Assembly (NCBI GenBank): GCA_008632985.1
Contig: QPGO01000290.1
Span: 47,236 to 67,235 of the forward strand
Direction of reading: 5' to 3'
From: Psammoneis japonica
Lineage: Eukaryota
Length of the DNA: 20,000 bases
The translations under genes were made by a program, and so were the position numbers. The stretch's first letter is position 1. Each line of letters starts with the position of its first letter. Below, in pieces: positions 1 to 20,000 of this stretch. The notes under the pieces were generated by a model, which did not search any database, was not told the origin of the DNA, and worked only from the letters and a program-made list of their open reading frames with translations.

Positions 1-350
1 CTGTGTTGCGAGCGTGCAAGCGCTGTGTCAGCCTGCACAGACAATTCAAACCATTTCATGCAATCAACCAAGTGCCACACACCCGAAGCAACTGACACAA
101 GAACTCTCCTGCTCAGGGGTGGCCTGCTCTGCTCTGTGGTCTGTGGGGCACTGCAGACCGAACGCAGTGGGCGGTTGACATGCAGATGACAGCTGCCAAG
201 TTTGCCTGCCCTGGTCCATCTGCGGCACTGGGCTGATGCAAACAAAATGTTCTGCTGCACATTCTGCCATGCAGGCATCAGCGACAAACCCACACACAAG
301 CTCTTCAGCGACAAACTTGCGAGCCAGCCTTCGCTGCGCACAGCCGTGCC

Positions 351-437
351 AGAGGAGCCACCACCTCAAAAAATCTCAAAGACAAGAAGTTCACCACAAG
401 CAAAGCCACGCAAGAGGAGGACCACCTCAAAAAATCT
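351..437 (+). repeat. Short imperfect direct repeat (~25 bp x2)
   Basis: agaggagccaccacctcaaaaaatct (351-376) and agaggaggaccacctcaaaaaatct (413-437). Confidence 0.75.
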
Positions 438-689
438 TTGAGACGAAAAGAAAAAGTTCTGCAAAAAATTCTGCCAAACACTCTACCTGAGCAGAAAGAA
501 AGGCCGGCGTGCGGTGGGGAGATGGGGCATTTTGCTGTTTTTCAGACATTCTCCATGACCAAACAAGTCATTCTGACACAGTGCAACAGTCAAGATTGAA
601 TGTTGCAACAAATGCAAAGTGTGTCAAAGCCTGAAGCACTGGATGAAATGCATTCGTTGATCTCTGGGACTGAAGCGCTTCTCTGAAAA

Positions 690-1054
690 GTTGAAAAAGC
701 TCACCTTCGAGTTGAAAAAAGTTGAAAAATTTCACCCCCAAGTTGAAAAAAGTTGAAGAAGTTTACCTTGTTTCTCTTTCACAGTCAGCCACAGACTTTG
801 CCCGCAACATCACATGGTGAAAATGGGGCCAAAGTGAAAAAGCTCACCTTCGAGTTAAAAAAAAAAGTTGAAAAAGTTCACCTTTTTGAGTTGAAAAAAG
901 TTGAAGAAGTTCACCTTCAAGGTGAAAAAAATTCTCTTTCACAGTCAGACACGGACATTTCATGGACGTTGCACACAACATCATGTGGTGAAAATGGGGC
1001 CAAAGTGAAAGAGTTCACCTTTGAGATGAAAAAAGTTGAAAAAGCTCACCTTCG
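690..1054 (+). repeat. Tandem repeat: ~31-bp unit nested in a ~160-170-bp higher-order unit
   Basis: Unit gttgaaaaagYtcaccttcgagttgaaaaaa at 690-720, 721-751 and onward (~8 full or partial copies). The spacer ttctctttcacagtcag...ggtgaaaatggggccaaagtgaaa occurs at 772-839 and 932-1010. Confidence 0.9.
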
Positions 1055-1615
1055 CAATGAAGCAAGGCTGCCATCGCCAAATGTCTTGGCTGGCAAGCAA
1101 GCACATCTTGTTCATGTCAAGCCATGACATGTGCATTTTACACTCTCAAGTGCCAGTGTTGAAGGGCAAGTTCATGTGAAAAGAGAAATGCGCGGGTTGT
1201 TTCTCTTCAGGGAGTTGGCCATCAAAATTGCAAAAATGCCCGATCTCCTGGCAGAACATTTGACAAAGGCACACAACAAGTGCTGACATTTCTGCTTGTG
1301 TGAGTTTGCTTTCTGGTGGAAGAATGTGACTTCTTGGGTGGAATTTTGGTTGTGATGGCATGGCATGTCATCTCCATGGTGGAACAAAGAATTTTGATGC
1401 GACATGCACGTCTGACAGACCAAGGTGCACCCGAGTGAATTCACATGCCAGCTGGGTCTTGAAGTGGCAAAGTCACCCTCAAAAGCATCACCATGGCTGA
1501 ACAAACATGCTTCCAGTGTTGTTGGATGTCCTGTCATCAACCCGTGTGAATCTTGTGGCATCTTGGCTTGAAATGATCTGACAGAGATGTTTTGCAACAA
1601 CAAGAAGCAGTGGTT

Positions 1616-2373
1616 TCAGTGTCTGAAATTCTCACCCAAGTCAAGCAGGGAAAGCTGAGAGCAATGGATGCCAAAAAGCTTTTTGAATCTAAAAGAAATT
1701 TGCCAGAACATGAGGTGTTGAGAGGTCATTTGCCAACTGGGATCACAATCATGGGATCCGAGTGAGATTTTCTCAAGACAGCAAAACAAGTCATGGCACA
1801 CAGCAGTTCTTGACAACATGGTGCATCATGTCAACATCTTGATCAATGACAATGACAACAAGAAGAGTGTGGCAAGAGCAAACATGATTGTGGCCACAAG
1901 AGTTGACCCAGTTCAATCAGACAGAAATGCTGCACAAGCACGGAAACACCACCTGTCATGAAGTGTCGCACACATTGCATCCATGCAGGCATCTGCTCTT
2001 GACTCTCTGGAAAAAAAAACCATCAGTGATGACTCACATGACAAGCCAACAACTGTTGTTGCATGTGCAGGAACCACTGATTTTCTGGTGACCATCACGT
2101 TGGAGTTGGCAGGTTGCTTCCAAGGCTGCAGGACCCATCTGTGAAAGGCATCATTGCATGTGCCAGCATGGATGGTGCCTTGTCCAGTGTTGTTGGTGGT
2201 CTCATGAGTGTGCCTGTGATTGTGGCTCCAACCTCAATTGGTTGTGGAACAGCTTTCGGAGAGGGGGCTGAGAGCATTGCCAACCATGTTGAGTTGCTGT
2301 GCTCCTGGCATTGGGGCAGGTTGTCAACATTGACAGTGGTTTTGGCACAGCTGCTCTTGCACTCAAAATGGCG
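1616..2373 (+). pseudogene. larB: LarB/CpmA-like (PurE/AIR-carboxylase fold, nickel-pincer cofactor biosynthesis) pseudogene with frameshifts and an internal deletion
   Basis: Collinear LarB motifs across shifting frames: SVSEILTQVKQGKL..A; FANWDHNHGIRVRF (cf. FAxLDHxRxxRxGFPE); IVATRVD; VVACAGTTD; IIACASMDGALSSVVGGLMSVPVIVAPTSIGCG (cf. AGMEGALPSVVGGLVxxPVIAVPTSVGYG); GLRALPTMLSCCAPGIG; VVNIDSGFGTAA. Gene ends are approximate. Confidence 0.88.
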
Positions 2374-2568
2374 TTGTTCCTTTTCTCAGGCAAAAACAGG
2401 GTTGATGGAAAATGCTCCAATGGCCCACACCATAGAATCGCCGTGGATGACGAACTGTCTCTAACGCTGCAAAAAGTGTCAGTGGTTCCCAACACACAGG
2501 TGAGCTTGGCTGGACCAAGCAGCTGCAAAATCAAGGACAACAGTGCCAGTTGAACCAAAAGCCACCTG

Positions 2569-2609
<41 letters not shown>
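2569..2609 (+). repeat. (CT)n microsatellite, ~20 units with one interruption
   Basis: ctctctctctttctctctct... read directly from the sequence. Confidence 0.97.
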
Positions 2610-2610
<1 letters not shown>

Positions 2611-3178
2611 AATGAAGGGCTCGAATTTGCTTGTCAACGCCGGATGCTGCTGCGTCGGTGTGGTGGTCTCTCAACATTCCAGGTCACGCTTCTGTTCAGA
2701 GCTCATCTTGCTCCCAGTTCTCCTCTTCATGCTGGGGCCCTTTCCAATGTGTGTGAATGAATGGGTTTTCAAACCTTCCCCATCATTGTCGTTGTTGTCC
2801 AGAGCCAGCACTTTTGCACATCTCTGGCGAGTTTTCCTCCCAGAGAAGAGTTTCCGAGTGAGGTTCACTGTTGTCAGACCTCGACAAGAGGACTTTGCCA
2901 ACAGAACATGTGAAGACATCACCCGCAGGAGGGAATCAACGTCTCTTGTGGTTCCACCAGTTCCACCGAGTGAGAAAGGTTGTTCAATGCGACCAGCTTG
3001 GCGACAAGAGCACCTCGGACCGTCTGTCTGCCCCGGTGAGCGGTGGGACGACCACTCGCAACAAAACAACAAAAACGACGACTCACTTGCTCTCTGCTCC
3101 GGCAGATGATGAGAAGAAGGGCACGTCCCCTCGAAAAAGTCGGCCAACCCTTGTTCAAGGTTTGTCAATTGCAACAGG

Positions 3179-4141
3179 ATGGAACGCCACCCACTGGCAC
3201 ATGCAGTTCGTGAATCAGGTGACGGAACGATGTCCGGTCACAATCCGACGGTGCGGGGAGACCCAAGTTTCATCTCCCGCGCTGGTGTTGATCGTGGTGG
3301 ATTATCATTTGTGCAATCCCGCTCAAGACCCTGGGTGCCCATTATGCCATCCATGACACAAGCCTCCCAAGCAACGCATGCAGAGTCATCGTCATCATCA
3401 TCGTCAACTGGTGTAGTAGACGGGTCAATGTTGCCGCCGCCCAATGGTCGCGTTGCACCACTGCTGCCGTTCTGGAATCATCCTCCAATGGTACCGAACG
3501 TCCACACAAATGTTGTTGATTGTCGCCTTGCGCTGAACGTCAACGCAAGCGTTCCATCTGCACCTGTTCGTGGCTTTACGCCATCGCTACCAAAGCCGCC
3601 GAGCTTTCATGCATCCTCAAAGTTTGTGGATATGTCTCCGGCAGGAGGGTTTGCCACTGTGCCTGTTCTCAAAGTCGATGAGAAGGTTCTTAAAAGACGA
3701 GCTTACATGCCAAGACAGAGTGAGGAAATTTCCCGGAAAAAGAAGGCAAAGAAAGCTCTGGTACAAGAGAAAAAGAAGAAATGGAGCAAGAAAATTATTA
3801 AGCGGAAAGCTTTGACACCGGCACCAGCTGCTGTCACTCCACTTGCTCCATATCTGATTCCAAAAAGCAGCATGCTTGAAAAAGACAACGCAGCTGCTGT
3901 GACTGAGACAGAAACAAGGGTAAAACAGAAGCATCAACTCTGTGAATTGGATAAATCAAACAGCACAGGTGACAGTCGAAACACTGACAAGGGGCGAGAT
4001 TTCAACGATTCACAAGGCAGCACTAATGAGCAGAGATTAATGAAGCTTGCAAAGAAACTCAACGTTCAAGTAGATTGGGTGCCGGATGATGAGTTGGACC
4101 CCATGGATGAGAGCTCTGGTTGTCCCACGGTGTATCTGTAG
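3179..4141 (+). CDS. Hypothetical low-complexity protein (Ser/Pro-rich, Lys-rich basic patch)
   Basis: 320-codon ATG-initiated ORF lying mostly in normal-TA sequence, so its length is not explained by loss of stop codons. No recognisable domain. Both ends are uncertain (possible intron near 4130-4190). Confidence 0.4.
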   Translation: MERHPLAHAVRESGDGTMSGHNPTVRGDPSFISRAGVDRGGLSFVQSRSRPWVPIMPSMTQASQATHAESSSSSSSTGVVDGSMLPPPNGRVAPLLPFWNHPPMVPNVHTNVVDCRLALNVNASVPSAPVRGFTPSLPKPPSFHASSKFVDMSPAGGFATVPVLKVDEKVLKRRAYMPRQSEEISRKKKAKKALVQEKKKKWSKKIIKRKALTPAPAAVTPLAPYLIPKSSMLEKDNAAAVTETETRVKQKHQLCELDKSNSTGDSRNTDKGRDFNDSQGSTNEQRLMKLAKKLNVQVDWVPDDELDPMDESSGCPTVYL

Positions 4142-4763
4142 CATGTTTTTTTTTGCTATTTCATGAGTTCTTATAGATGATTGACTTCAGGATGATCGAG
4201 AAGATATAACCATACCTGGCAATCGGTCTCAAGTCAGGACGGAACGCAACAACGAAAGTATTACATGCATGGAGTATCAGGTCCGATATGTTTAGCATGG
4301 ATTTGATACCCAGTTCTTCAAGCGGTATCGAAGCAAATGTGCAAAGACCAATGAATAGTCCATGTAGAAATATTTTTCCCTTTCCAAATATTATTCGTCG
4401 TTCCCAACATACGTCGAACTATTCCTTCCGCGGATTTTCATCCTTCATGTCTCGCCCATACGGTACAAGTATGGCCCTTGTGATCCCGGTACAAGTAGTG
4501 ATCTATTGTAGCATGGGAATGGAGATGGCATTAGCCACCACGATTTGCCTCATGTCGTCACAAATGGCAAAACCCGGGCCGACCAAAATGTCAAGTTGTA
4601 GTCGTACGTAGTTCCGTCGCGTAATCACGTGGTCGGAGCCGAGAGGCTTTCCGAAAAGGGAAATTCCAACACCGTAGGAATTCGCACTATTGTGCTCCCG
4701 CTTTTCCGGACGCGGCGAGTGAGATATGCATTAACAGACGACAAAAAAAGTGATGCTGTTATA

Positions 4764-5714
4764 TTATTTGAACACCGACAACTTCCCAAGAAACTCTTGA
4801 ATTGTTTCAAAGCTCATAAAGATGATACCCTGACCAGGAACAACCCGTCCCAAGCGAGGCAAAAGTCCAGCATAAAAGGCAGGGATGCCCTCCTTTACCA
4901 AAATTTGTTTGAAACAATCAAAGGTATTCTTGTATTGGGCAGCTTTTGTACCTTGCATGCGTGTCTGTTCAATACGGTGTATTTCGATGAAGCATGAGTC
5001 ACTTCCATTCATATCAAATCATCAAAACGTGCGTCGACTTACCTTTACGACGTCAAAAGGATTGTTTCCCAGTGTGCTGAAACACCCGGCGCTCATTCCG
5101 CCCAACAAACCCATAATGGGCGTCAGATTCTTTTCACCATCATTTGTAACAATCCGTTTGTATTCATTAAACCACATGAAACGCAATCCTTGATTTGAAC
5201 CCTGCTTTAGGGCCGTGGCAATTCCTCCTTGGTACACTCCGCGGATGCCTTCCGTTTTCAAAATATGCCCAAAGCCCTTGACAAAGGGCATGTTGAGTTC
5301 AATGCATTTTGTCTTTACAGTTTCCACTGGAGCCACAATGACGAGCGCTTCCGTCACACCGGCACCCAAACCCGCTACAAAATTTTTACCCGGCGTCAAT
5401 TTTCCTTGCGGATCTCTCAACTTGTCCTTGATGACTGAATTGAGTCCGAATCGAATACCCGCCTTTGGGATGCTTCCCAACAAGGTCGGTGCCAAGCCGC
5501 GATAGAGTGAGAAAAAGCCCGTCGTTTCGACTGTGTATTGGAGACCCGAAATCATTCCTGAATAGGGTAATTTGGCACCCTTGGTTTTGGATTGGAGTTG
5601 CAATTGTGTTTTGATAAATTCCATGGGCCACACCGCCGTGGCTTCCACGCCGCCGGCAATACAACCCGCCGCCATGGGCAAGAGCGGATTTTTCGTTTTT
5701 GTTTTTTCCGACAT
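4764..5714 (-). CDS. Mitochondrial carrier (SLC25), citrate/tricarboxylate transporter CTP1/SLC25A1-like; 2 exons (5714-5043, 4964-4764), ~290 aa
   Basis: Three PX[DE]XX[KR] signatures (PMEFIKTQ, PVETVKTK, PFDVVK|TR), plus PKAGIRF and KQGSNQGLRF typical of citrate carriers. A 78-nt GTAAGT...CAG intron (5042-4965) joins the exons in frame. Confidence 0.92.
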
Positions 5715-6355
5715 TTGAGCAGTTTGAAAATCAAAATCTAAATGGGAATATTCAAGAAATCAACAACGAAAACTGTCCGCTTCCTTTCAAACAATATCTG
5801 TCGGCAAGACGTAATGGATAATAACAACCCTGGACTGTGTGTGGTTGCTGGTTGCTGCTGCACCTGCTCTGTACAGTGGTTGTGTCTGGATCGGATCGTC
5901 GGCACTTTTTCTCGGTTTCTTTTCCCGCGCGAATTTCCGGATTCGCCAAAGATTCACACGGTCGAAGTACGAACGAATATGAATATTTTTTGAAATGAAT
6001 ATATAACATATTTATTTTTAACGGCATTTCAGATCCGAAAATTTATTTAACGTTACTGATGATCCAAAAATGTTTTGAGAGAATTCATTGGCTAACGGGG
6101 TTCCGTGGAGTATCCAGCCAACTGTCTTTTATACGTGATTATTGCATACTTTTGTACGTAATCGGTCGTTATCTAACGGCCAGCCACGCATGCGCTTGAA
6201 CACATCACAAGACTGAAAAATCGAGGGCGAAAGCATGACACGTCCCCTTCTCATCAGTCATTGCTTGTCATGCATGGGATCGATGACACCTCTAAAGTGT
6301 GATTACAAGTCATAATTCTTTCGATACGACTCTTGTTACCTTGACTTTGAGTCTC
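5715..6355. promoter_or_regulatory. Intergenic region between divergent genes (putative bidirectional promoter)
   Basis: Lies between the carrier ATG (5714, -) and the TLDc-gene ATG (6356, +), with an AT-rich core at ~5975-6060. Positional inference only. Confidence 0.5.
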
Positions 6356-7656
6356 ATGGTGCTTCCTATTCAAAAAGATCATCGGTATCAAGGCCAGTCC
6401 AACGAAAACGGCTGCTCCAGTGGCATGTTGTTGACGGATGACGCGCAACAGACAATAACATCAGTTTCAGAACTAAGAATCAACACTACTTGTGCTCGTG
6501 ACGACACTTTGTCGTCGCCATTATGCCTGGAACGAACGCTTTCGGAGAAAAGCTTTGATGAAAAGGATTGTTTCTTTTTACCCTTTGGTGGAAAGCATCA
6601 TCATAATAAAGAAAAACAGCATCAAGATATTGTAAAGGTACTGGCGGAAAAGACGTGCACATGGATGGAAGAATTAGAAGAGAAGCGACGAAGAGAATCG
6701 GCAGAGCATCGAATATCCCAAGCCATTCTTGGATTGAGGGCAGCGAGCGAACGTTCTAACAGCAGTGACTCTGTCTTGTTGCAAGAAGGAGCATCCTCGC
6801 CATTGCATGAGCTAGTTGGAGACGTGGGAGTGGCCATGTTTTCGCCTCTGACAAGACGGCCTTTGAACCACAACAACGAAACAACTCATGCAAAGAAGAA
6901 GAAGAAAAGAACACTCATCACGTAGAGTCGGAAAAAATCGAAGACACCGAGACGGATGACGACGAGTCGGAGGAATACTATGCAGTGCAAATCGAAGACG
7001 AACCGGATGCGGATTTGATTTCTTGTCCACGATTGTTGACACCCACCATGATGCAACAATTGGTGGATGACGACGCACTTCCCGAAATTTTAAAGTCCAA
7101 GACTTGGAAGCGCATTTTTGCCATTGGTCGTGATGGCGATGCGTTTTGTACCATGGCGCAACATTGTCACTCGTACAAGTATTCACTCGTTGTGGCTCAA
7201 ACACCAGAGGGTCATGTCTTTGGAGGATTTGCAACCGAACCGTGGACTCGTCGTCAAGACGGAGTGGGACGTTGTTTTTTCGGAAGTGGACAGTCCTTTT
7301 TGTTTACGAGTTTTCAAGACGAACAAGCCGAGTCTGTCGGACAAGATGATGGCAGTGATTGTTTCCATGATAGCAACATGAATGAACTAGCCGTATACAA
7401 GTGGACGGGGAACAATCGATATTGTCAAGTTTGCGACGTGGACAATGGATTGATTGCCATGGGCGGAGGCGGAGCCTTTGGTTTGACGATTGAAGAAAAC
7501 TTTACTCGCGGTGGTACGGGCAAATGCGACACGTTTGGCAACCCTCCTTTGATCCCGTCGCGTGACGAACGATTTGACATTTCCAACTTTGAAGTTTATG
7601 GGTTTGTCTCGTCGTCCCAATCGTTTAGTTCGGGCCGAGGCAGCCCTTCTCTGTAG
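6356..7656 (+). CDS. TLDc-domain protein (OXR1/NCOA7-like C-terminal domain); one apparent frameshift within 6811-6925
   Basis: TLDc motifs WKRIFAIGRDGDAF, GHVFGGFATEPW, FFGSGQSFLF, YKWTGNNRY, IAMGGGGAFGLTIEENF, CDTFGNPPL, FEVYGF. The TLDc frame is open back to 6811 and overlaps the upstream ORF that begins at ATG 6356. The 5' model is less certain than the domain. Confidence 0.85.
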
Positions 7657-7760
7657 TTTTATGGTGTCTCTAATTTTATAAAGAACCCTCCATAGATTCT
7701 ACAGCGAGATTGTGCTGGTTTAATTTACCATGCATGAACAGCACTCCCAGAATCACTTGG

Positions 7761-9422
7761 TCATGATGAACGGTTATTGCCTCGCCACTGAAACAAACCA
7801 TAGTACACGAGGCATGGAGGTACGCTGTCGTAAACTTTGCCGTGATTGGAGGGGTCCGCATAGTCCTTGAGTTTCCGTTGGTTGGTGCAATCTCTCAACA
7901 ACAATCGTACAGCACTCTCGTGCATTTCATTGCCGGCATAATTGACATTCAACACATAGAGTTCATCTTCGTCCTCTTCATTGTCATGTTGCTTGTTGTC
8001 GTCATAGTATTGCGAGATGTCTTTCATGGGTGTAAGAGACGCAAGAGGATTCTTTACGAGCGACATGCGAGGGCCAGGTGGAGTTGGCAACCAGCCCTCG
8101 GGACAAGCAGAATCCGTCACATCTACTACAACCTCATGACTTGACTCATCCGTAGTACTGTCATCCGTAGTGTTGTCCGACTCTTTGGCATTATCGTCCT
8201 CGCCATTGCGTTGTTCGTCCTCTTCTTCCGCCCCTTGTGTACCATTCACTAGACTGAATGCGGGTGGCGCCAGCAGGGTCGGAGGTAGAATGGACTGGGC
8301 TCCACCATTGCGTTCAAATTCCTGGATAATGTTGGGCAGCTCCGTCAAGAGTTTACCAAGCTTATCTCGAGCATTTTCAAAAGAATTGTTGACAATTGTT
8401 TCATTCCAACCTCCCTTTTTTGTAAGTAGCAAATGCTGCAGTGCCTGACAAGTTAATGAGGCATAGTTGGTTGCCATGAGGGAAATGTTAATGGAAACAC
8501 CCGCCTCGACGGTTTCCACCTTGTGCCACATGCCGGCGGGAAAGTACAAGGAATCACCTGCTTTTAAAACGATCGAACATTGCTCTCCACGAGCATTATT
8601 ACTCTTGCAGGATGGCTTGTCAAATTCAAACGTGGGACACGTCAGCCGTGCCGCTTTGAGCTGTGATTCCACAGCACGTGGTGCTGCATAGTGGGGTGTA
8701 CAACCTCGCAACGGATACTTGACAGTTCCCTCTTGGAGAGTCCAACGTTTGCTTCCACTGAGTTGAATTGTAAAATTTTCTTGAAAATCATAATGCCAAT
8801 CCGTCATGTGGGCACAAGTTCCCTGAAATACTTCGACTTCACCACGACCCATGCACGTTGATCGTTCTCCCGTTGGATCGTATTGACCACAACCAATGCC
8901 GGTTTCGGCAAGCATTCGTGAAACGAGCAGCTGTTCCAATGTTGGATTGGCACGACAATACGTGGCATGGCCAGCCTGGTGCAACGACAGTGCTGTCGAT
9001 GGATCCGAAATTTCAATACTTTCAATCAAATCTTGCTTTACAAGCCACACAAAGACGTTCTCCGAACTGGTCTCTGCGATAATCGACCCGGAATCCAAGT
9101 TGTACATGTATTGTTGAATTAATTTCTGGACGCGTTCGTCGTGGTTTCCCGAGGAAATGTGCAAGGCCTTTTTTCGAAAACAATGTTCTAGAAAATCATG
9201 GACGGATAGTGGAAAGATGAACGATTGTAGTAGCGAGGAATCCGACGACGATGGATCAATAATTGGTGCATTTTCGTGATTTGATGTGAGAGACAGAACC
9301 GGTATAGAGGGGGACAGCTCCTGCAGTCGGCGAGACGCATCTTGTTGTATCGTTTGAAAGCCGTGCTCTTCTTTTTCCGTCTTTTGTCGTTTGGTGGTTG
9401 GGCCGTTGCTGATGGATGCCAT
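7761..9422 (-). CDS. JmjC/cupin 2-oxoglutarate-Fe(II) oxygenase, ribosomal oxygenase (NO66/MINA/YcfD)-like, ~553 aa
   Basis: HxD...H triad: TDWHYDFQENFTIQLSGSKRW and LKAGDSLYFPAGMWHKV. N-terminal FLEHCFRKKALHI segment. First ATG at 9422; uninterrupted ORF. Confidence 0.88.
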   Translation of the reverse strand: MASISNGPTTKRQKTEKEEHGFQTIQQDASRRLQELSPSIPVLSLTSNHENAPIIDPSSSDSSLLQSFIFPLSVHDFLEHCFRKKALHISSGNHDERVQKLIQQYMYNLDSGSIIAETSSENVFVWLVKQDLIESIEISDPSTALSLHQAGHATYCRANPTLEQLLVSRMLAETGIGCGQYDPTGERSTCMGRGEVEVFQGTCAHMTDWHYDFQENFTIQLSGSKRWTLQEGTVKYPLRGCTPHYAAPRAVESQLKAARLTCPTFEFDKPSCKSNNARGEQCSIVLKAGDSLYFPAGMWHKVETVEAGVSINISLMATNYASLTCQALQHLLLTKKGGWNETIVNNSFENARDKLGKLLTELPNIIQEFERNGGAQSILPPTLLAPPAFSLVNGTQGAEEEDEQRNGEDDNAKESDNTTDDSTTDESSHEVVVDVTDSACPEGWLPTPPGPRMSLVKNPLASLTPMKDISQYYDDNKQHDNEEDEDELYVLNVNYAGNEMHESAVRLLLRDCTNQRKLKDYADPSNHGKVYDSVPPCLVYYGLFQWRGNNRSS

Positions 9423-9468
9423 GTTCAAGAACCAAGAAAGAGAAGGATGAATGGATTGGGTGAGGGTA

Positions 9469-11007
9469 TTTTTTAAAATAGAAGATTAAGGAAGCCTATG
9501 TAGAGCGGAAGGTAACAGCAGAGGGAGGCACGGAGGAAGCTGTAGAGACGGTAGAGTAAAAAGGTCGATGGACGCAAGACGAAGGGCGTTTTGTGGAAGG
9601 TATGGGTGAGGAGGGGGCAGGGAGAGAGGAGGTGAATCGGAGGATGTGCGTAGAAAGGTGAAGAAAACGTTGTAGCCAAGAGTTTGGGTGGCCCACTGGG
9701 ATGGGGTGGCTGTACGGTAGGTGTTTCCAAAGCGATCGGCGGACAGGCGACGCCATGCGGAGTCAGCAGAGGGAAGGATTGCAGACGGAGATGACAAAGC
9801 GTAGAGGAAGGCGGAGTAGGAGGCATCGGAGTGACGAAGGTCAGAGGAAGAGGACCAGGGTGGCTTGGGCTGAGAGCAAATAGAGGGGGATGTAGAACCA
9901 AAGAGCAAGCGGTGGGCAAAGTAGCCGAGACCACCAAGGTGATCTACAGTGAAGGGGAGCAGAAAGATGCCATTGTTGTCAAGCGAAGAAACAACAAGGG
10001 ATCCATCGGCAGAGGAAGTAGAGGGGCCAAGAAACTTCAATCTCGCGCTCGAGTGGTGTGCCTCAGTTAAGATGGGAGAAGAGGGGGCAGGCAGACCTGG
10101 AGGAGGGCGAGAGGAAGCTTGAGGGACGGTGACATCCACTGCAATGCAGTGATGGCGGGAGGGAGCGGAAAGGGAGGCGGGAGGGGGGATTGAAATGCCG
10201 ACATCGGTGGGACGGAGAAGCGGGCGGGTGGGGAGTAGGTTGGTGGGTTCAAGATGAACGTTGTTGGGGGATCGACAGAACTCAGCAAGAGGGCCCAAAG
10301 TTTGGGCTGGGATGAAAACAGTGTCACGGAGACCATTGGAAAGCTTGGACTTGTGAGCACGGCGGCAAGAAAAGGCATGATCACCGCAGGCATCCAGAAT
10401 GGCATGGCCACAGGGACAGGGAGTGTTGACAAGGGACGGAGGAAGGATGGGGAGACGAAGCTTACGAAGGGCGGCAATGGCGCAGGCGTCCGAAGAAAGG
10501 CGGGAGCTTGGAAAGCGACGAGAGAAGGAATGAAGAGGGAGGCTTGTGAGCGGAGACAGCAATGAAGGGAGCGAAGATTGCACGTCGTAAGATGAGTTAG
10601 CAAGGATGGAGGTCACTGCTTGTTGCTGATGTTCATGGTAGAGACGACGGGCCAGACCGGGGAGAGTGGCCGATTTAACCAGGGCAGCCAAGGAAGAAGA
10701 GGAAAGGGTGGAGGCGGAAGCCAGAACGGGAGCACAACGGCGGAAGAGCGCACAGAGTCGCAGGGAAGAGCAAGGGTTGGACCAGGAAGACAGGGAGAGC
10801 CGAAAGCAGCGCGGAAGGGAAACAGAAGCGCCAGATGGCAGGCTGACACCGTGCGAAGCAAAGCGGAACGAGCGGAGAAGCGACACCAAGAAGGAAGGAA
10901 TGGCGGCAGCTGTTGGGTCCCGGAGACCAAACCCGCCTGAGGAGGCAGGAAGGAAGGCGATGGCAATGGAGTGGTCGGGAAAAGGAGCGGCGAAGGAAGT
11001 GACGTAG
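9469..11007 (-). mobile_element. 5'-truncated non-LTR retrotransposon, CRE-like with restriction-like endonuclease (RT core missing)
   Basis: Post-RT motif LPASSGGFGLRD; RKLRLP followed by CCHC knuckle CPCGHAILDACGDHAFSC; LRD...EP...RPTD...AVDVTV...K...LLPFTVDHLGGLG endonuclease motifs. Stop at 9486, then a short A6 tract (9474-9469). Strong purine/pyrimidine strand skew. The 5' end is approximate. Confidence 0.82.
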
Positions 11008-11056
11008 TGTTTTCTTGTCAATTTTGAATTTTGTGAGTGGTGAGGTGGCAGGTGAG

Positions 11057-11155
11057 GCGAAAAAGATCGGTCGGAGGAAGACGAGAACGGACAGACTTGA
11101 GCAGAATTCTCCGCACGTGCCGCACTCGTGTCGGAGGGGGGATTTTGGAATTTTC
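11057..11155 (+). repeat. Diverged ~100-bp direct repeat, copy A
   Basis: gcgaaaaagatc-ggtcggaggaagac-gagaacggacagacttgagcagaattct...gtcggaggg-ggatttt aligns with 15536-15636. Confidence 0.8.
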
Positions 11156-12083
11156 GCCATCTGCGTTGAAGGTTGAAGGTGCACATGTCGACAATGTTGC
11201 CTGCTGCGTTGACAAACTGGACGTCATCCATGGGCAAACGGATGAAGAACATGACAGAGGGGTTGGTGACAGTGTTGTCCAGCTGATGGAGGTTGATGAT
11301 GCCTTGCATTTTTGCACACATGACATGATTGGGATGGAGACATGGTCAGCCACCGCACCATCATCCTGGATTGGTTTGAGGATGCGCCATTGTTGTCAAG
11401 GCAGTCTGGGATGATGGCTCCAGTGGCATCATGGTGTGTCATGATGGCAAGATTCACAGGATCCTTGAGGGACTGGTGACCTGCACTCTTCCATTCAGCA
11501 GCAATCTTGACTTCAACAAGGCTGGTTTGACTGGCGAGAGTGCCCACGATGGCAAGGCAGTCCCCGTGGGGGACAGCCCAGATGTGTTGATGACTGCACT
11601 CTTGTTGACATTGAATGCAAGGCAGTGCTTGGCATCAGCCATGTCTGTGGCAATGTGAGGGCAGACACTCTCAAGGTGATGCAATTGTGCGCGCAGGTGT
11701 GATGCGCTTCTTCGGGATGAAGGTCTTGGACAGAGGGTTGGCCAGATGCTTGTCGGTGGACAATGGTTTGGCACATTTGACAGGGGCTGGGGATTCACTG
11801 TGTTGGGTGAAAAGGTCTTGCAGATTGTGGATGTGTTTGTCGAATGGTCGAAGCATCGCTTGAAAGTGGAGCAGTGTGAAAAGCGAATGATTCTCAAAAT
11901 TTTGAACTGCTTCTCCTGTCGTGGTGAGCCGAAAAGTGGCGAGTGAAAGGAGAGACCATTGGCAATTGGCAATTTTCCCAATGGACAAATGGTCAAGCAG
12001 TGCCAGCTTGCATGAGCTGCACCATGTGCTGCTTTTGTGCACCGCGATCCGGAGAGATGATGCAAGCACCATTGCTTGAGACC

Positions 12084-14159
12084 ATGATGGCAGCTGGGAC
12101 GACCAACAGTGACAAGTGGCTTGCTCTAAACAAGGGTCGTGTTCAAGAAAAAGCAGGAGGAGACAAGTGGGAGGAGGAGCTTTGGACAGATTTCATTGAG
12201 GAAGCATTGTGGTCCCTGCTGCACGAGAATGATGTCATTGATGGAGACACGATTCGCACCGCCGAGGGCCTTGTCAAGTGCTGAGTGCAAACCAAGAAGC
12301 ATCTGATTGCAATGGCCAGAAAGCCTCCCAACAGAAAGCAGCTCTATGAAGCATTTAAGGGGGAAGATGTGCCTCTCATCATCTGTGCTGTGTTGTTTGA
12401 TGAGTGCGTCCATGTGAGTCGAGATGGTGAGTCTGAACTGTTTCTTGCACTTCTGTGTCCCAAACCAACACTTCTTGTCAGTGGTGTCAGAAAACATGTT
12501 TTGTTGTTAGATGTTTAAGTCTGGACTGTTGCTCACAGCCGGTGGCATTGCATGTGTGAGTCAAACATGCGGCATCAAGGTTTGGACCTCTTCTCACTCC
12601 TTCATCTTTTCACTGCTTCGCTGCAGAAAGAGAGCACCCCACTGTGTTTTCAAGCGATTGCCACTCCATCTGCACAAACTTGTGCACAAAAATGTCCCCA
12701 CTGGCAACTCTAATGCACCACGCATCCATCAAGATCTTGAAGACTTTCCAATGGACAAACTCAAGCCTCTGCAATTGGAAGAGTGTGTCAAAGATCTGTT
12801 CAAAAGAAGACACCAAGAGGAAGAAATGGGTCAAGGAAAGGTCAGTTGCTCCTGAGAAAGACAGGCACAAGATCACTGTGATCACCTTGTCACAAACATG
12901 ATCAAATCTTGCAAATGTGACCTTCACACAGACAAAGAGGCGTCTCTCAATGGTTTGAAAGTGGATGTCGAGATGCTTCGCAATTGGTTCGACACTGTTT
13001 GTGGAACGATGGAGGTGAAACAGCCGAAAAGAAAGAACATCGTGCCCCCCAGACCCAGACCCAATGAACCATCCAAAGGTCATAACTCAGGTTGCATCTC
13101 AGATGACACCACTCCACACAATGTGCGGCACTTGCCAAAATGTTTGCGGGATTCTTTCCACCTGCTCTTCTTGGCATTTTTTCAGATGGGCACCAGCGAA
13201 AGAGGACATTGGGCAACTGGAGGACAAAACTGGGCAGATGCCACAGGACCTTCACTTGTTGGAGCCACACAACAAAAACTCATTGAAAGGTGATTGTGAC
13301 AAATTTTGAACACCACAGAAACCAAGGTCATTGTTGGAGGTTGGAAATGATCATAAATCTCCTTCCATGTTTCCCAAACCGCATGTTGACTTGGGCAAAT
13401 GTGAGGAGGAGGGGAAGTCGAAGAATTGGATGATTCTGCCAAGGCAAATAAACAGGGAACATTGCATGCATCTGATGTCATTTCGGATGGGGCGCTTGTG
13501 CTGAGAATGCCAGCTTGGGTGTGTTGGGAGAAATGGCACGATCACCAGTCAAGCGGCTGCCAGCTCATGAGCATGATTTTCTCTGTGTTGTGAAAAAGGG
13601 TGATGCTTTGGGTGGCCATGAAAAGCTCAAGCATGACCTCAATTTCTACAAAGGGTGAATGCCGAACTCCAGGAATGAAAAACTGCATGTGCTGGAGGAG
13701 CTGGGTCACTGGCATCATGGCCATGTGCATTGTGCAATGAGCAGAAATGGCAATCTTTGTGTGCTGAAGCACTTTGTCAAGGGTCAGCATGCCACACTGT
13801 CAAATGGCAAAAGAAAAGCAATTGATGATTCAGAAGCCACTGCAAGCAAATCGGTCAAACACTGGAACACAGCCTGTGACAACTGGCTTCCTCATGTGTC
13901 AGCTGGAAAATGAGGTGGTGGCAATGCCATCATCATGCCAGACTTGGAGAAAATGTCAGCACAGCATGAACCTGAGAAGGTTTTGCCCATGCTTGGACAG
14001 ACTGTGAAAAAGAGATTCCATGACAAGGGCATTTGGCATGGGGGTGCCGCTTGGCGAAATGTCACATTGGCCAGGAACGCAAAAGGCAACATGACAAAAG
14101 TTTGCATGACAGATTTAGAGCCGCAAGGAATGATCAATCAAGTTGAAATCTCGAAGTGA
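12084..14159 (+). pseudogene. Decayed header + PD-(D/E)XK nuclease-like + protein-kinase-like gene (Crinkler-type REase-kinase architecture)
   Basis: Nuclease-like EASLNGLKVDV...CGTMEVKQP, then KVITQVASQM...GILSTCSSWHFFRW. Kinase-like VLEELGHWHHGHVHCAM...CVLKHF...GK*GGGNAIIMP...FHDKGIWHGGAAWRNV...VCMTDLE (13659-14159 in one frame with an internal TGA at 13911). Candidate introns at 12414-12510 and 12556-12626 (GTGAGT...AG). The 5' exon assignment is tentative. Confidence 0.65.
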
Positions 14160-15535
14160 TGGGACTTCAAAAACATGTGGACAGACTTCAAACGGAACCT
14201 TCAAAGTAATTGGGAGCAATTCAAGGCGGCTGAAGGTGTGCAATGAACTGCGCAGGCTCCTTTCTTGGCTTGTTGCATCACCATTCTATCCATCCAGCTT
14301 TTAAAAAAACTTTGAACTGTGCTGTTCCACTTCTTGAGTTTTCTTTTGTCAACAAACTGTTCTGTTCTGCGCTCTGTGGATTCTGAGATGTTGACGCTTG
14401 GTGCCCGACAAACCAACACATGGGGGTCATCACGGTCTTCCCGTTTGTGTTCCCTCCCACCCAACAGAGGTTTGGCCAGCCATTGGGGCACTGCAAGCCT
14501 TGGCACAGTCAATGGAATGTCCAATTCTGTTGCAATGATTACAATGACTGCTGCAGTGTGGCCCATTTCTTTGCCCCCATCAGCACTCCAAAAGTCAAAC
14601 TCTGTCGCCAACAAGCAAGGAACAACCACCCACTCACTGCAGCACCATTGCAACAACCAACAATGATCAGTGGGATTCTCAGAACATTCCAGTGATGCCA
14701 TCAAGACCACACAAAATGTTTTTCACACACCCGTGCCCACTCTCAAAAAGGAGAACAGCCACACATCAACGTTGACGGCATGCCATGCAGAAGTTTTGGC
14801 TCCTGGAAGTCTTGCAACCACTCGGTGAGAATGCAGCATGGGCCATTTTTCTTTTTCTGCAGTGAAAAAACACACTTGGCAATGACAGTGAAGGGGTGAG
14901 AGCCACCGCCACTGGCAACCCATGGGGCAACATGAGGAGCATCACTGAGAAAGAACCCAACACCCACAACATTGGGCATGATCAGCGTGGCACATTCTCT
15001 GGCAACCACAAATGGTGCTTGTGACCCAGTCATGCCACAATGGGGCAACAGTGGGCAGAAAACTTGGTCAGGGAACAGAAGCAACATGTGAAAGAAGTGG
15101 TGCTTGACAAGCAGGGTGTTTCCCCTGTTGCTGACCCCCTCTTCTGTCCCTGATGGGGTGCAACAAAAAAGCAGCACAGCCCTGAGGACACAGAGAAACT
15201 TGTCACAGCTGAAAGAGCAGTTTGTGAGCAAAATGCAGCACATGGGAAAAATGAAGCACCTTCATTGGACAGGAAGAAGCACAGGAGTGTCTTTTGGCAG
15301 AGGAGAGACACACAACACAGAGGAGCACAGAAATTTCAAAAAACAATTGGAGAAAACTTGCCACTGGTGCATTGAAAGAGACACTGTGCATGAGGGATGC
15401 AGTGCAAGACATCACTGCAGGAGTGAGTTTCAAAGAGGTCAGGCCACTGCCGAAGGCACCTCCTGGGGTCAAATGTCTTGTTGAGAAAACCAATGTTGAG
15501 CACAACCTGCAGCGGGTGAACGCATTTTTTGTGTC

Positions 15536-15636
15536 GCGAAAAAGATCGGGTCGGAGAAAGACGGAGAATGGACAGACTCGCGTAGAAATCTACATCATCC
15601 TCCGTAAGTCTCGTCGGAGGGAGGATTTTCGATTTC
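15536..15636 (+). repeat. Diverged ~100-bp direct repeat, copy B
   Basis: gcgaaaaagatcgggtcggagaaagacggagaatggacagactcgcgtagaaatct...gtcggagggaggatttt; same orientation as 11057-11155. Confidence 0.8.
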
Positions 15637-15739
15637 AGAAAAATTTCAGTGGCGAGCAGGAGTGCACTGTTTCCATGTTTCGACGCAACTGCGTTTGACA
15701 ATAAGAACGTATTGTTGATTCGAAAAAACAAACAACAGT

Positions 15740-18700
15740 ATGCAAGAACAACGCGTTTCGTTGGAGATGGTCCATCATGGTGCTGCCGCGTCGTCGTCGG
15801 CTCATTCGGTAGTGTGGATTCCATCATCAGACGACCATAATAATTCCTTGGTTGTGTACTCGTCTCACGGACTGTTGAATATAGCCACGCTCGAAACCGT
15901 AGTGCTAGGCACACAACAACAAGAGGTTTGGAACACGACTACCAGTCTGTGTACAGCGACGGTTGGGAGTGATGTTAGTACGAAACGGGTAATTTCCTGC
16001 TTGGCCCATGTGCGTCCGGCAGTCCAGAATTCTTCCAATCATGTATGCATCGCGACTGGCTTTTCCGACGGCACGGTGAACACTTGGACAAAGCAGCAAG
16101 ACAATCAAGACGATTGGAAAGAACATGTCGTGGTACAACCACCATCTGAAAAAAATGGACAACACGCCATTACAGACATGGATGGACTCCTGATGAATGA
16201 CAATGTCGTTTTTCTGGTTACTTGTTCGTCGGACGGTGCCTTCTTGTTGCAACAACATGGAAACAAAGAAGAACCAAAGAGACTGGCATCCTTTTGCGCC
16301 AATACGGTTCGACTCGAACAAATGGTGTCGTTGGATAAAATTATAATTTTGGTGGGAACCGCTCATCCGCGACACAACAAAATTCACGTGTACACCATGA
16401 ACTGCAGCAGTACTGGCAGTGATGATGTTCACCATTGTGGTCATTTGAGTGGACATCAAGATTGGATCACGTGCTTGGATTGGAACATGAATGAAAAAAC
16501 AATTCCCATGCTGGCCAGTGGTAGTCAGGATGCTAAAATTCGCTTGTGGCGATTTACAACCGTCTCCACCACGAGCAGTTCGTCCAATCATCAAGAGGAT
16601 GTTTTGCCCACTGTTTCGGATGATGAGGATAGTGATCTTGACTCTCTTTCCGATGACAATGACGAAGGCGAGGCTCGATTGGAAATCCTGAATGAAAAGT
16701 CCATAACAAGTGTTACACTGGAAGCCCTTCTTCTGGGCCACGAGGAATCCGTCACGTCTGTCCATTGGCATCCCAACCCACAACGTTACTACGGACAAGC
16801 TCACATTTTGATGAGCAGCAGCATGGACCGAACCATTTTGATTTGGGGACCCACCAGTGATGCTGGTGGAGTTTGGACGCCATTGACACGAGTGGGAAGT
16901 GCGGGAGGTATTCTCGGTGGATCCATTGGTTCATCGCTGCTGGGATTTGTCAATTGTCAAGTGGAACCCGTGCGAGGATCACGACTCTTGGGTCATGCGT
17001 ACGGAGGGGCTTTGCATTTTTGGTCTCTTGAAAGTAGTAGCCATGACAAAGAATCATGTATTACTCTTTCCATGGATGAAATGGCGGCTCAAAACAAGTG
17101 GAAGGCGACGCCCTGCCTGACTGGCCATTTTGAAGGTGTCACGGACCTTTGCTGGGAAGCGGAATCCGGCGACTATCTCTTGACGGTCAGCATGGACCAA
17201 ACGTGCCGTTTATGGGGTACTGTTTCAACGACTTCCAAAAAGGATGTATGGATCGAGCTGGCTCGACCACAGGTACACGGATACGATCTAAATGCCATTG
17301 CATCCGTTTCTACCGTACAACACAAGCATTTGATGGCCAGCGGTGCGGATGAGAAGGAATTGCGTGTCTTTGACGCTCCTCTCACCACGACAAATATTCT
17401 ACGAGCTGCGAGTGGTATTGTTGATGATTCGAATGTAGAATCGGGAGACTCATCGCGTGTCGAGCGTGCTTACATTCCCTCGTTGGGTCTCAGCAACAAG
17501 GCGACGGCTGTCGAGAGTGCCGAAGAAGACACGGGTGGTATTGACGACAATGGCTCATCCTCCCAAGACAAATCCTTCCATTTGCCTCTGGAACGGGATT
17601 TGGGCGTCATGTCCTTGTGGCCAGAGGTTCGCAAACTTTTTGGGCACAATACGGAATTATTCTGCCTTGCTTCGACAGTGTCCGCTCGGTCTGGTGCGAA
17701 ATACTCGTCTAGTCCCTTTGCCGAGATGTTCTTGTTGCGTCCTCGGCCAAAGCAAGAGATGTGAAGCGGCCTCGATTCGAATTTGGGATATTGAAAAAGG
17801 AACGTGCGTTCAGGTTCTAAAGGTAAGATACATCACTTATGATCGAGCGTTGTCCTGTGGTAAGAGTGGTGTTACCAATCGCTCCTTTGCATGCATCTCT
17901 TCTGATTACAGGGCGGGCATCGATCAACCGTGGCTACGTTGAGCTTCTCGCCTGATGGAAGATATTTGGTAAGATTAGATTAGCGCCTGCAAATGTCATG
18001 ACGTTTGGTGTTCTAACTTGCGCGAACCTTCCTTGTATAGGCGTCATCCGGCAAAGACCGTCGGCTTTGTTTGTGGAAAAGGGACGAGCCTAGACTGGAT
18101 TGCCCTCCATCATTTTCACTCGCAAGTGCAATCGATTCCGCTCACAAACGAATCATTTGGAGTGTTCATTTTTGTCCGCACGACCCTTGTATTTTGCGTC
18201 GGGGTCTAGGGACGGTTGCGTCAAGATTTGGAAGGTGACCGAGGCTCCAAGTCAAGATGATGACGGAGCGAAAACGACACAATTGAAGACGTTGAACAGG
18301 TGAGATACCGTAGCAACTGATGAATTGACTAGCTATGCGCCCGTATCCGTGTATCACTCATGTGATTGTTTCTGTCTCCAGCTTTGAGCCAGAAACGAAA
18401 ATTGGCAAAAGGGCGGATTCAGTGACGGCATTGTCGTTTGCTCCTTGGCTAGTAACTACGTCGGCCAATAAGAGCTGTGCAGTCCTTGCTCTTGGACTAG
18501 AAAGTGGTATTATTGAATTGTGGTCCGTGCCACTGTCAGACAAGAGTGTCGGGGAAGGAAAACCTGTGGTTTGTCGGAACATCCTCTGTACTCCTCGACA
18601 TGAATCTCATTGCGCCACAATAACCAAGCTTGCATGGAAACCAATCAACAACAGGGAAGACAACGATGGAAAGTCACAAAGGATTCCGCCATGCTTCTTG

Positions 18701-18753
18701 CAAGCGCCTCAGCTGATCACGGGTGCAGGTTGTGGCGAATGGCATTTAGCTAG
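15740..18753 (+). CDS. ELP2: Elongator complex protein 2 (WD40); exons 15740-17822, 17912-17968, 18041-18299, 18382-18753; four apparent 1-nt frameshifts
   Basis: ELP2 motifs LSGHQDWITCLDW, LASGSQDAKIRLW, LEALLLGHEESV, SSSMDRT, ELARPQVHGYDL, SGADEKELRVFDAP, IPSLGLSNKA, LWPEVRKLFGH, GHRSTVATLSFSPDGRYL, AHKRIIWS, ASGSRDGCVKIW, LASASADHGCRLW. Three GT-AG introns of 89, 72 and 82 nt. Confidence 0.93.
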
Positions 18754-18916
18754 TTGTTGCTACTACAGATAGTCATATGCTACGCTGCATACCCGATACC
18801 GTCGTGACAATGCGAACTTGGAACCGCTCACGAATGAAACTCTAGCTGCCACAGCGTAGAGTACGTTAACTTTAAACTACACTATGAAAGCTTCTTCGTA
18901 GGTGATTATTAATAAC

Positions 18917-20000
18917 TCAGACATGCCAAAGAAAGGTCGGTTTTTGCCTCACGAAAAAATACAGCTCGGAGAGATCGTCGATTCTTGCTAGTTCTTCATA
19001 CCATAGGTTCGATTCCTCGCTCTCCAGCAGCAGTTTCTTTTTGCCGCTCCGATTCAGCCGCAGAAGAAAGGAAAGGTAGGGGCTTACAATCATTTCAGGT
19101 TGTTCCACAATGGCATGGTTTCCTTCTAGCATGTCTAGAACCATTTCATAGCATTCCGATGCGTCTTGTCCATCAACGCCCTCAAAATCAAAGGGAATAT
19201 TCTGCAGTTTTTTGTTGGATTTGAGCTTCTGACAAAAGGATCTGACTCCTACATGAGAAATATTTTTATTGTCAGTAAGATCAAGGTGGATAAGCCCGCT
19301 ATCTTCTTTCTCAAGGACACGAGCAAACGCTCCGGCGGTTTCATCACCGCAGTTATTTAAACTGAGGCAGATCTTCTCCAAAAAGGAATTGAGAAGCAGT
19401 GCTCGAGCAAGTGCCACCCTCCTTCGTCACCAAAACCGCATTGCATCAAGTCTATTCCTTAAGTGTTTGGGTTTCTGACAGTGTTTCTGCAATAGCCATG
19501 ATGCCACGATCCCCAATGTTAGTGCTGCCGTGGAGGCGAAGTATTTCAACCGACGAACCTGCACGAAGACTATTCGCAAGGGCAATGGCACCATCATCAC
19601 CAATCGGACAACTATAAAGTGTCAAGGACGTCAACGTTTGATTGTATAGCAGGCTTGTGGCGAGCTCTTTTGCACCTTCGTGATCAACAAAGTCCAGTCG
19701 CAAGTCTTTGATTGTTCGATTCGATGTCACCAAATCACAAAGAGCGGATGTGCAAGTCTCCTGTCTGTATCAGACCACTGCCATTCTTCAACATTTTCAA
19801 GATTCTGCGCCCTGATAAATGGCCTTTCTTTCCCAACTTCAAGAACCTGAATGGAGGAATTGCACTCCCGCAAGCTATTCAAAATATTCACCACACAATA
19901 TGATTCGAGGTGGCATTGATAGAGTATGAGCGTTGTGGGGACCAGCCGTTCCGGATGCTCCTTGCAATGGAATTTGCACCCTGCTCACCGATCGAGCAAC
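18917..20000 (-). CDS. RNI-like leucine-rich-repeat protein, 5'-partial, with several apparent frameshifts
   Basis: Repeats such as CSIGEQGANSIA, LTSLTLYSCPIGDDGAIALANSL, LRLHGSTNIGDRGIMAIAETL, LIHLDLTDNKNISHVGV. The C-terminal LRLNRSGKKKLL...LYFFVRQKP resembles expanded diatom LRR families. Confidence 0.8.

Follow-up and report, generated by a model that had tools for sequence, protein, structure and literature searches.

In a 20,000-nucleotide stretch of the genome of the diatom Psammoneis japonica (GenBank assembly GCA_008632985.1, contig QPGO01000290.1, positions 47,236 to 67,235; hereafter the window, numbered from its first letter), we find two silent blocks that are poor in both TpA (TA) and CpG (CG) dinucleotides, and at two of their three edges TA loss exceeds CG loss by 0.7-1.2 kb of DNA. 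TA loss and CG loss are separate mutation processes. The explanation that we favour, to which we assign a probability of about 0.5, joins a fast, block-wide mutator that makes only A:T>G:C changes at TpA and has step-like ends to a slower decay of CpG in older or methylated DNA. Flanking DNA that is TA-poor and keeps CpG is referred to below as a halo, and the edges are lettered A (right end of block 1), B (left end of block 2) and C (right end of block 2), with all coordinates collected in Table 1.

Boundaries of TpA and CpG depletion

Depletion was followed through pyrimidine-purine (YR) steps, the index being the share of such steps that are TA or CG. Because the changes from TA to TG or CA and from CG to TG or CA are transitions, each of which leaves a YR step a YR step, this share is independent of base composition. 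The window's gene regions served as background, with TA at 373 of 2578 YR steps (0.145) and CG at 577 of 2578 (0.224), and the edges of depletion were placed as single change points with 95% profile-likelihood intervals.

An initial annotation of the window had described a complete absence of TA alongside plentiful CpG in 2464-3302, and all of its counts proved exact on recount. One TA dinucleotide starts at 2462 and the next at 3303, so that 2463-3302 is free of TA (a gap of 841 bases), while CpG numbers 39 in 2600-3300 and 13 in 1081-2400. With a GC content of 0.53, 2464-3302 should hold 46.2 TA by mononucleotide expectation, or 23.1 at the odds ratio of 0.50 seen in gene regions, and holds none (Poisson P(0)=9e-11). 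Outside the depleted domains no TA-free gap exceeds 126 bases, and in 300 first-order Markov simulations of 20 kb none exceeded 393. Expressed as YR steps, 2466-3302 has TA at 0 of 182 (Fisher p=1.8e-12 against background) and CG at 39 of 182 (p=0.85). Local GC content, which the initial annotation had named as a possible alternative source of the halo, is thus not its cause, as the YR index and the expectation from composition both indicate.

The change points place the TA boundary at edge A at 3298/3303 (interval 3252-3577) and the CG boundary at 2433/2439 (2346-2609), and at edge B at 10068/10073 (9945-10241) and 11239/11243 (11132-11280) respectively; at both edges the intervals are separate. 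At edge C the TA change point falls at 15581/15583 (15503-15583) and that of CG at 15510/15513 (15440-15521), and the intervals overlap. Next to block 2 the counts are 8 TA and 71 CpG in 10020-11155, made up largely of 10020-11010 (TA 8/196, p=7e-6; CG 61/196), with a further TA-free stretch at 11011-11240 (TA 0/54, p=5e-4; CG 16/54). Beyond its other end, 15510-15582 contains no TA and 9 CpG, all nine of the latter lying among the 15 YR steps of 15513-15582 (TA 0/15, p=0.15; CG 9/15). The claim that the same offset recurs at the other edges consequently holds for edge B, and fails for edge C, where the shortfall of TA is within chance. Nor is the halo a uniform rim, since most of it at edge B is a retroelement fragment that arrived later (see below).

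No loss of CpG without loss of TA was found at any edge, or in any 500-base bin of the window, and CpG-poor DNA is always nested within TA-poor DNA. Together with the complete absence of TA from DNA in which CpG stands at the level of genes, this bears out the earlier proposal that the two losses are separable.

Mutation spectrum

Within the blocks, TA (symmetrised odds ratio 0.05) and CG (0.29) are the only dinucleotide classes to fall and TG/CA (1.75) is the only one to rise, the seven other classes remaining within 0.13 of background (e.g. AA/TT 1.24 vs 1.19, AT 0.86 vs 0.99). In the halos the odds ratio of TA is 0.00, against a background of 0.50, a value at which TA is under-represented in gene regions too. 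YR steps number 23.77 per 100 bases in the blocks and 24.36 in the background, and given that their density is nearly kept, transitions must dominate and few TA can have been lost by transversion. Counts of TG and CA are close to one another (220 and 209; 472 and 459), from which it follows that both strands are affected. Together TG and CA make up 0.756 of the YR steps of halo 1 and 0.91-0.93 of those of the blocks, compared to 0.631 in the background; in halo 1 the increase approximately equals the missing share of TA, with the share of CG unchanged. As the rise in TG and CA accounts for the lost TA and CG, transversions are again few, although this test of the TpG and CpA products is one of aggregate composition, together with four Tyr to Cys changes described below, rather than of individual sites. 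The ends of TA loss are steps rather than decaying tails.

The TA dinucleotides that survive in the blocks are enriched for the contexts CTAA (6, vs 22 outside) and TTAA (4, vs 18 outside), whereas ATAC, ATAT, GTAC and CTAG account for 0 of 22 survivors, as against 143 of 373 outside. These contexts hint at a rule for the mutator that concerns neighbouring bases.

Differences between the window and contigs assembled from the sample were considered for 40 of 212, with the direction of change not polarised. Five of the seven listed for block 2 (11241-15512) are CpG in one form and TpG or CpA in the other (11363, 12289, 14320, 14370, 14824), and one is TA versus TG (12287); the remaining CpGs of this block look highly polymorphic. 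Outside the blocks (3303-9469 and 15583-20000) 20 of the listed differences are transitions, 13 of which exchange TA with TG or CA (expected share 0.224, binomial p=5.5e-5), so that TpA in ordinary DNA may likewise be hypermutable, if at a lower level. As a test of CpG hypermutability in the first halo the comparison was empty, with no listed difference from sample contigs in 1-3710.

Edge A: a single-copy spacer without TpA

The CpG boundary at edge A coincides exactly with a (CT)20.5 microsatellite (period 2 in Tandem Repeats Finder). Segmentation of CG gives 45 of 612 YR steps between 2 and 2567 and 39 of 157 between 2609 and 3298. The change point itself is estimated further to the left, at 2433/2439, because it is pulled there by a patch of 33 bases (2433-2465) in which 11 YR steps hold 2 TA and 4 CpG, amid surrounding steps that are approximately 93% TG or CA.

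From the microsatellite to the TA step lies the spacer that we term halo 1. It is covered by single contigs only, an X1 contig spanning 2620-3830, while an X2 contig lies over 3101-3830 and another RNA-derived contig over a place near 2730. The spacer has no codon-frame signal and no Pfam match. Its open reading frames (ORFs) gave no believable homolog in an Atlas search (recognition 998, best score 0.79), and an exhaustive HMMER search against 1.84 billion proteins returned a sole match, P0147, at 26-30 bits per repeat; this is a tandem-repeat protein without a Pfam family, and we judged the match spurious.

The TA step lies 124 bases inside an orphan ORF of 320 amino acids, and from 3303 onwards TA stands abruptly at coding-region density (21/203). 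The ORF has no Pfam family and no homolog in the near-length class, the only class searched. Among its reading frames, frame 0 scores highest for codons (-0.012 vs -0.11 to -0.27). Within it, a contig form exists that skips the 91 bases of 3831-3921 and carries an extra A; in X1 it has roughly half the depth (31.8 of 61.8), and it occurs in X2 as well. The skipped segment ends in CT..GT, and is probably a heterozygous deletion, not an intron.

Edge B: a TA step inside a retroelement copy

Most of the second halo is a fragment of a many-copy retroelement, a later arrival next to block 2. Of the 26 homologs of the minus-strand ORF at 9486-11321, 12 have a reverse transcriptase (PF00078) upstream of the region that they share with it. 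Homology detected by tblastn is limited to 11036 down to 9654, and a reverse-transcriptase profile built from the 12 homologs, run at maximum sensitivity in six frames, found no match upstream of 11010, the copy itself lacking the reverse-transcriptase part. Invariant residues of the family are present in the copy (C304, D310, D314, H315, C319, R370, P371, D373 and D396), forming Cys/His and Arg-Pro-x-Asp...Asp motifs. Pfam names no nuclease family for this ORF; the motifs may correspond to a zinc knuckle and a restriction-like nuclease, as in R2-type non-LTR (non-long-terminal-repeat) elements, in which a single ORF carries these two motifs after a reverse transcriptase. Summed contig depth reaches 3123-5064 in three bins over 9339-11339, against 48-222 elsewhere, a figure that comes from one sample, which may be that from which the window derives, and is not a copy number, showing only that many distinct contigs match; contigs have loose ends at 9470/9472 and 11010. 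Searching metagenomes for DNA of this family gave 193 pattern matches, none of which was confirmed.

The two sides of this one copy differ in their share of TA: toward the gene, in 9470-10019, TA makes up 21 of 111 YR steps, and toward the block 8 of 196 (p=5e-5), with the change point at approximately 10070. Successive bins beyond that position hold 2/62, 5/71 and 1/63, followed by 0/54 in the flank; as they are not monotonic, a smooth gradient across the retroelement was rejected in favour of a step to a low level. The block side has lost TA less fully than the blocks have (8/196 vs 21/1482, p=0.015).

Changes from Tyr to Cys are seen in the protein sequence. In the block-side columns where 6 or more of 13 homologs have Tyr, the copy has Cys three times, Phe once and Tyr once, and a fourth Cys stands where Tyr occurs in 3 of 13 homologs; the four Cys codons at Tyr-consensus columns (Tyr in 3-7 of 13 homologs) lie at 11093, 10736, 10388 and 10148. 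Tyr is retained at 10640, 9818 and 9719, and of the three gene-side columns that likewise have Tyr in 6 or more homologs, two keep Tyr and the third has Phe.

The retroelement ORF stays open for some 100 codons past the end of homology, in the TA-free DNA of 11011-11321, probably because TA loss removes TAA and TAG and makes no new stops. There is also an excess of G over C on the plus strand of the retroelement (G ~200 and C ~85 per 500 bases), which continues more weakly (G ~160, C ~95) for about 1.2 kb into block 2 (11011-12250), a stretch in which no homology to the family is detectable.

A proposed fast TpA mutator and slow CpG decay

In the explanation that we favour, a TpA-specific mutator would convert TA to TG or CA on both strands by A:T to G:C transitions. 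A DNA-acting adenine deaminase is the probable enzyme, by analogy with the proposal made for the chlorarachniophyte Bigelowiella natans. Its action would be fast and near completion over the entire silent interval, while the far slower change from CpG to TpG or CpA, presumably via deamination of 5-methylcytosine (5mC), would so far have left its mark only where each block is oldest. Later additions to a block would accordingly show TA loss without CpG loss, as is seen in the retroelement, and as may hold by extension for the spacers 2611-3302 and 11011-11240. A mutator operating at the rate of that of B. natans would saturate long before methylated CpG decays, which would produce the nesting of CpG-poor in TA-poor DNA. 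The graded order of loss, with TA loss incomplete and CpG intact in the retroelement, fits one fast and one slow clock. Given the genetic code, a change of TA to TG or CA cannot produce a new stop codon, such that frames would stay open and Tyr would be replaced by Cys or His.

Several points weigh against this explanation. It draws on one 20-kb window and three block edges. The single-copy halos are at least as free of TA as the blocks (0/236 vs 21/1482) with their CpG intact (55/236), so that a pure time lag needs a rate ratio of about 20 or more, as well as later silencing of the spacers than of the cores. The share of CpG is nearly two-state, at 0.07 as opposed to 0.25-0.31, the sole intermediate stretch being 1-499 at 0.13, and this looks more like methylated versus unmethylated DNA than a continuum of ages. 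The position of a CpG boundary on a microsatellite hints at a physical boundary, and part of halo 1 may be non-silent today, because RNA-derived contigs cover 3101-3830 and a place near 2730.

The methylation of the cores, presumably present, was an assumption of the initial annotation and remains one here; like the enzyme and the relative age of each single-copy spacer, it is inferred, whereas the dinucleotide pattern, the nesting of CpG-poor within TA-poor DNA, the retroelement's later arrival and its Tyr to Cys changes are shown. The initial annotation had left open whether the mutator reaches further than CpG decay or acts earlier or faster, and under the tests made here either may be true. 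Our results narrow the mechanism to a deaminase that reads TpA and is aimed at a domain, not at a sequence.

Alternative explanations

A footprint of the mutator that is wider than methylated DNA offers the main alternative, less probable than a fast and a slow clock. Under this hypothesis the mutator is guided by a chromatin state, set by repressive histone marking or by absent transcription, and fills the interval between active promoters, with 5mC confined to the inner part, and the halos, being unmethylated, never lose CpG. All three flanking genes point their 5' ends at a block, and the TA steps lie near their ORF starts (3303 vs an ATG at 3179, ~10070 vs an ORF end at 9428, and 15583 vs an ATG at 15740), ranging from 124 bases inside to some 640 bases upstream of them. 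The step near 10070 cuts a single retroelement copy, and position, not element identity, therefore sets the target. The two-state CpG share with its sharp edges, one of which is on the (CT)20 tract, and the single-copy rims that match or surpass the blocks in TA loss at no cost to their CpG, likewise fit it. Intergenic spacers off the blocks keep TA (49/217 in 4142-5021; 30/145 in 5715-6298). Furthermore, transposons of Phaeodactylum are described as bearing H3K9me2/3 and H3K27me3 besides DNA methylation (PMC4504042). However, the retroelement part of the halo at edge B is more simply explained by later arrival. The mutator could be tied to a silent-chromatin state independent of cytosine methylation, spreading from old transposon blocks across unmethylated single-copy DNA to an active promoter or (CT)n boundary, though we hold this, too, to be less probable than a fast and a slow clock. 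If it were true, the TA-free zone would be a permanent DNA record of the spread of heterochromatin, and block-adjacent genes would be exposed to stop-free recoding (Tyr to Cys or His) of their 5' ends.

Much less probable, and confined to edge B, is the editing of the retroelement's TA sites in RNA or complementary DNA before integration, with a polarity like that of ADAR or APOBEC, in which case the element would be uninformative about the block. Each of the four Tyr replacements is to Cys (sense-strand TAY to TGY), with no His, and TA loss is uneven along the element, as such editing would predict. However, a split of 4:0 falls short of significance (two-sided p=0.125), the mutated part has nearly equal numbers of TG and CA (64 vs 63), the adjoining flank outside the element (11011-11240) is also TA-free, and halo 1 would be left unexplained.

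We consider it slightly less likely still that long-patch, error-prone repair is responsible, as the initial annotation had suggested, with T:G mismatches from 5mC deamination recruiting mismatch repair and a polymerase-eta-like enzyme that mutates WA motifs up to ~1 kb away. TA is a WA motif, the halo width of 0.7-1.2 kb approximates that of repair tracts, and TA loss always lies beside CpG-decayed DNA. Against this, the other WA motif, AA/TT, is not depleted (1.24 vs 1.19), the density of YR steps leaves room for few transversions (23.77 vs 24.36 per 100 bases), and TA loss ends in steps, observations that disfavour the suggestion in this window. In addition, 230 of 231 hypermutations in B. 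natans were A>G or T>C changes at TpA (bioRxiv 10.64898/2026.01.13.699255).

Least probable of all is that no mutator acted in the halos and that base composition, promoter selection or chance emptied them of TA: the under-representation of TA in gene regions speaks for this, but none was found in 2464-3302 where 46 are expected by composition and 23 at the background odds ratio (P=9e-11), gaps elsewhere reach at most 126 bases in gene regions and 393 in simulations, and intergenic spacers other than the halos are the TA-richest parts of the window, so that composition and chance are refuted for 2463-3302 and 10020-11240 and stand only for 15513-15582.

Silent blocks and neighbouring genes

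A six-frame Pfam search of both TA-free domains found no families, with only a sub-threshold match to DUF5898 (17.1 bits, cut-off 28.9); Rfam found none, and no long internal or inverted repeats were found around the halo. Block 1 contains an A-rich tandem unit of 31-33 bases in arrays at 686-769, 831-931 and 1002-1061, and longer copies of 70 bases at 794-863 and 965-1034. Between 500 and 2463 it has TA at 6 and CG at 28 of 463 YR steps, with TG and CA at 0.927, and an X1 contig spans 1-2562 with no differences. Several block bins have no X2 cover, from which we conclude nothing.

The window is otherwise gene-dense and eukaryotic. The gene next to edge B encodes a JmjC-domain protein (Pfam JmjC_2 3.5e-12, Cupin_8 2.5e-11) and is overlapped by an X2 contig at 7540-9498. 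The gene beyond edge C is identified as elongator protein 2 by Pfam WD40 (2.1e-24) and by Atlas and homolog names, its best named relatives being those of the pennate diatoms Nitzschia, Seminavis, Fistulifera, Mayamaea and Epithemia (42-46% identity). In the mitochondrial carrier gene, an X2 contig skips 4965-5042, which is an exact GTAAGT...CAG intron on the minus strand; since the contig skips a canonical GT..AG intron, run X2 (labelled 'DNA?') contains spliced RNA.

Table 1 Features of the window, in order of position
Feature	Position	Strand	Description
Silent block 1	1-2463		TA- and CpG-poor, TG/CA-rich; no recognisable gene or transposon; continues past the window's left end
Retained patch	2433-2465		33 bases at end of block 1; 2 TA (2433, 2462) and 4 CpG (2439, 2442, 2451, 2465)
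(CT)20.5 microsatellite	2569-2609		On the CpG boundary of edge A
Halo 1 spacer	2611-3302		692 bases, single-copy, non-coding-looking; TA 0/156, CG 38/156 (0.244), TG 59, CA 59
Orphan ORF	3179-4141	+	320 amino acids; from the ORF list; 5' end toward block 1
Mitochondrial carrier gene	5022-5714	-	
TLDc gene	6985-7656	+	
JmjC-domain gene	7761-9428	-	5' end toward block 2
Retroelement copy	9470-11010	-	5'-truncated; C-terminal half of polyprotein; between JmjC gene and block 2
Block-side two thirds of retroelement copy	10020-11010	-	TA-poor, CpG-rich (61/196); most of second halo
Halo 2b	11011-11240		230 bases of non-element flank beyond loose end 11010; no TA, normal CpG
Silent block 2	11241-15512		TA- and CpG-poor; TA 15/1019, CG 73/1019, TG+CA 0.914
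Third halo (edge C)	15513-15582		70 bases; CpG present, no TA; within chance
Elongator protein 2 (WD40) gene	15740-17764	+	5' end toward block 2

Comparison with known systems

Methylated transposons lose CpG via deamination of 5mC. The blocks resemble DNA that has undergone such decay, in that their CpG odds ratio of 0.29 is accompanied by the matching excess of TpG and CpA that it demands. Decay of this kind has no effect on TA, whereas here TA is lost as well, and the CpG footprint is the narrower of the two at two of three edges. DNA methylation and repressive histone marks have both been reported on diatom transposons (PMC4504042).

The repeat-induced point mutation (RIP) of ascomycetes provides a second comparison. 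It depends on duplicated sequence and takes place before meiosis. As in RIP, silenced or repeated DNA is hypermutated here, with spill into single-copy neighbours, and the leakage of at least 930 bases past a repeat boundary described in Neurospora (PMC2973834) is similar in scale to our 0.7-1.2 kb. Unlike RIP, which makes TpA from CpA, the process in the diatom destroys TpA and raises GC, and while RIP creates stop codons, the change of TA to TG or CA cannot. The extent of RIP is set by the duplicated unit, yet the step at edge B cuts a repeat copy, and the single-copy halo 1 is fully converted.

In phase two of antibody somatic hypermutation, mismatch repair and polymerase eta generate mutations at A:T pairs hundreds of bases from the cytosine that was deaminated, TA being a hot spot. 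Repair of this type favours the WA motif (AA and TA) and produces many A:T transversions. The pattern in the diatom differs from it in that AA is unaffected, transversions are few and the ends are step-like.

The closest parallel comes from B. natans, in whose mutation-accumulation lines two integrated viral regions acquired 231 mutations, 230 of which were A>G or T>C, every one of these at TpA (Mettrop et al., bioRxiv 10.64898/2026.01.13.699255). The preprint gives the TpA rate as ~6e-7 per site per generation, approximately 1000 times the background of that species, describes a hypermutable region extending 21 kb past the annotated insertion, and proposes an ADAT2-like adenine deaminase (bioRxiv 10.64898/2026.01.13.699255). 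In both systems A:T>G:C changes are restricted to TpA with TpG and CpA as products, fall on either strand and are confined to local foreign or silent domains, which combine low TpA with high CpA and TpG (giant-virus and virophage DNA in B. natans). Foreign or mobile DNA as the target, also a feature of the B. natans type, is seen here in the mutated retroelement fragment, whereas the blocks and halo 1 have no recognisable mobile origin. The present case further differs in coming from a diatom and in being deduced from composition and a few amino-acid changes rather than from mutation-accumulation lines, and its TA odds ratio is 0.05 in the blocks, compared to 0.45 in the viral region of B. natans as given in the preprint. 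CpG decay, methylation boundaries and TA-only single-copy flanks are not mentioned in the preprint's abstract, Results or Discussion.

With regard to the enzyme, adenosine deaminases with a 5'-U preference are known (ADAR; ADAT2/3 and TadA, on U33-A34 of tRNA; see also bioRxiv 10.64898/2026.01.13.699255). The TpA context fits an enzyme that reads U or T before its target A, as such deaminases do, and the enrichment of survivors for TTAA and CTAA is a neighbour rule that we could match to no enzyme.

Whether 5mC guides the mutator reduces to the question of whether the TA-free, CpG-rich rims are methylated. If they are unmethylated, TA depletion would be a map of past silent chromatin readable from sequence alone, and a source of directed recoding of the 5' ends of neighbouring genes. 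Our search for literature on TpA loss in diatoms, or on offsets between TA and CpG boundaries, found only the B. natans preprint, most subscription journals lying outside the search. A DNA mutator that erases TpA has been reported only in that preprint, of 2026 and on an unrelated alga. To that report the diatom adds four points: TA loss and CpG loss are statistically decoupled where blocks end, a TA step falls within one repeat copy, a single-copy spacer has been converted throughout, and a repair model based on the WA motif is excluded.

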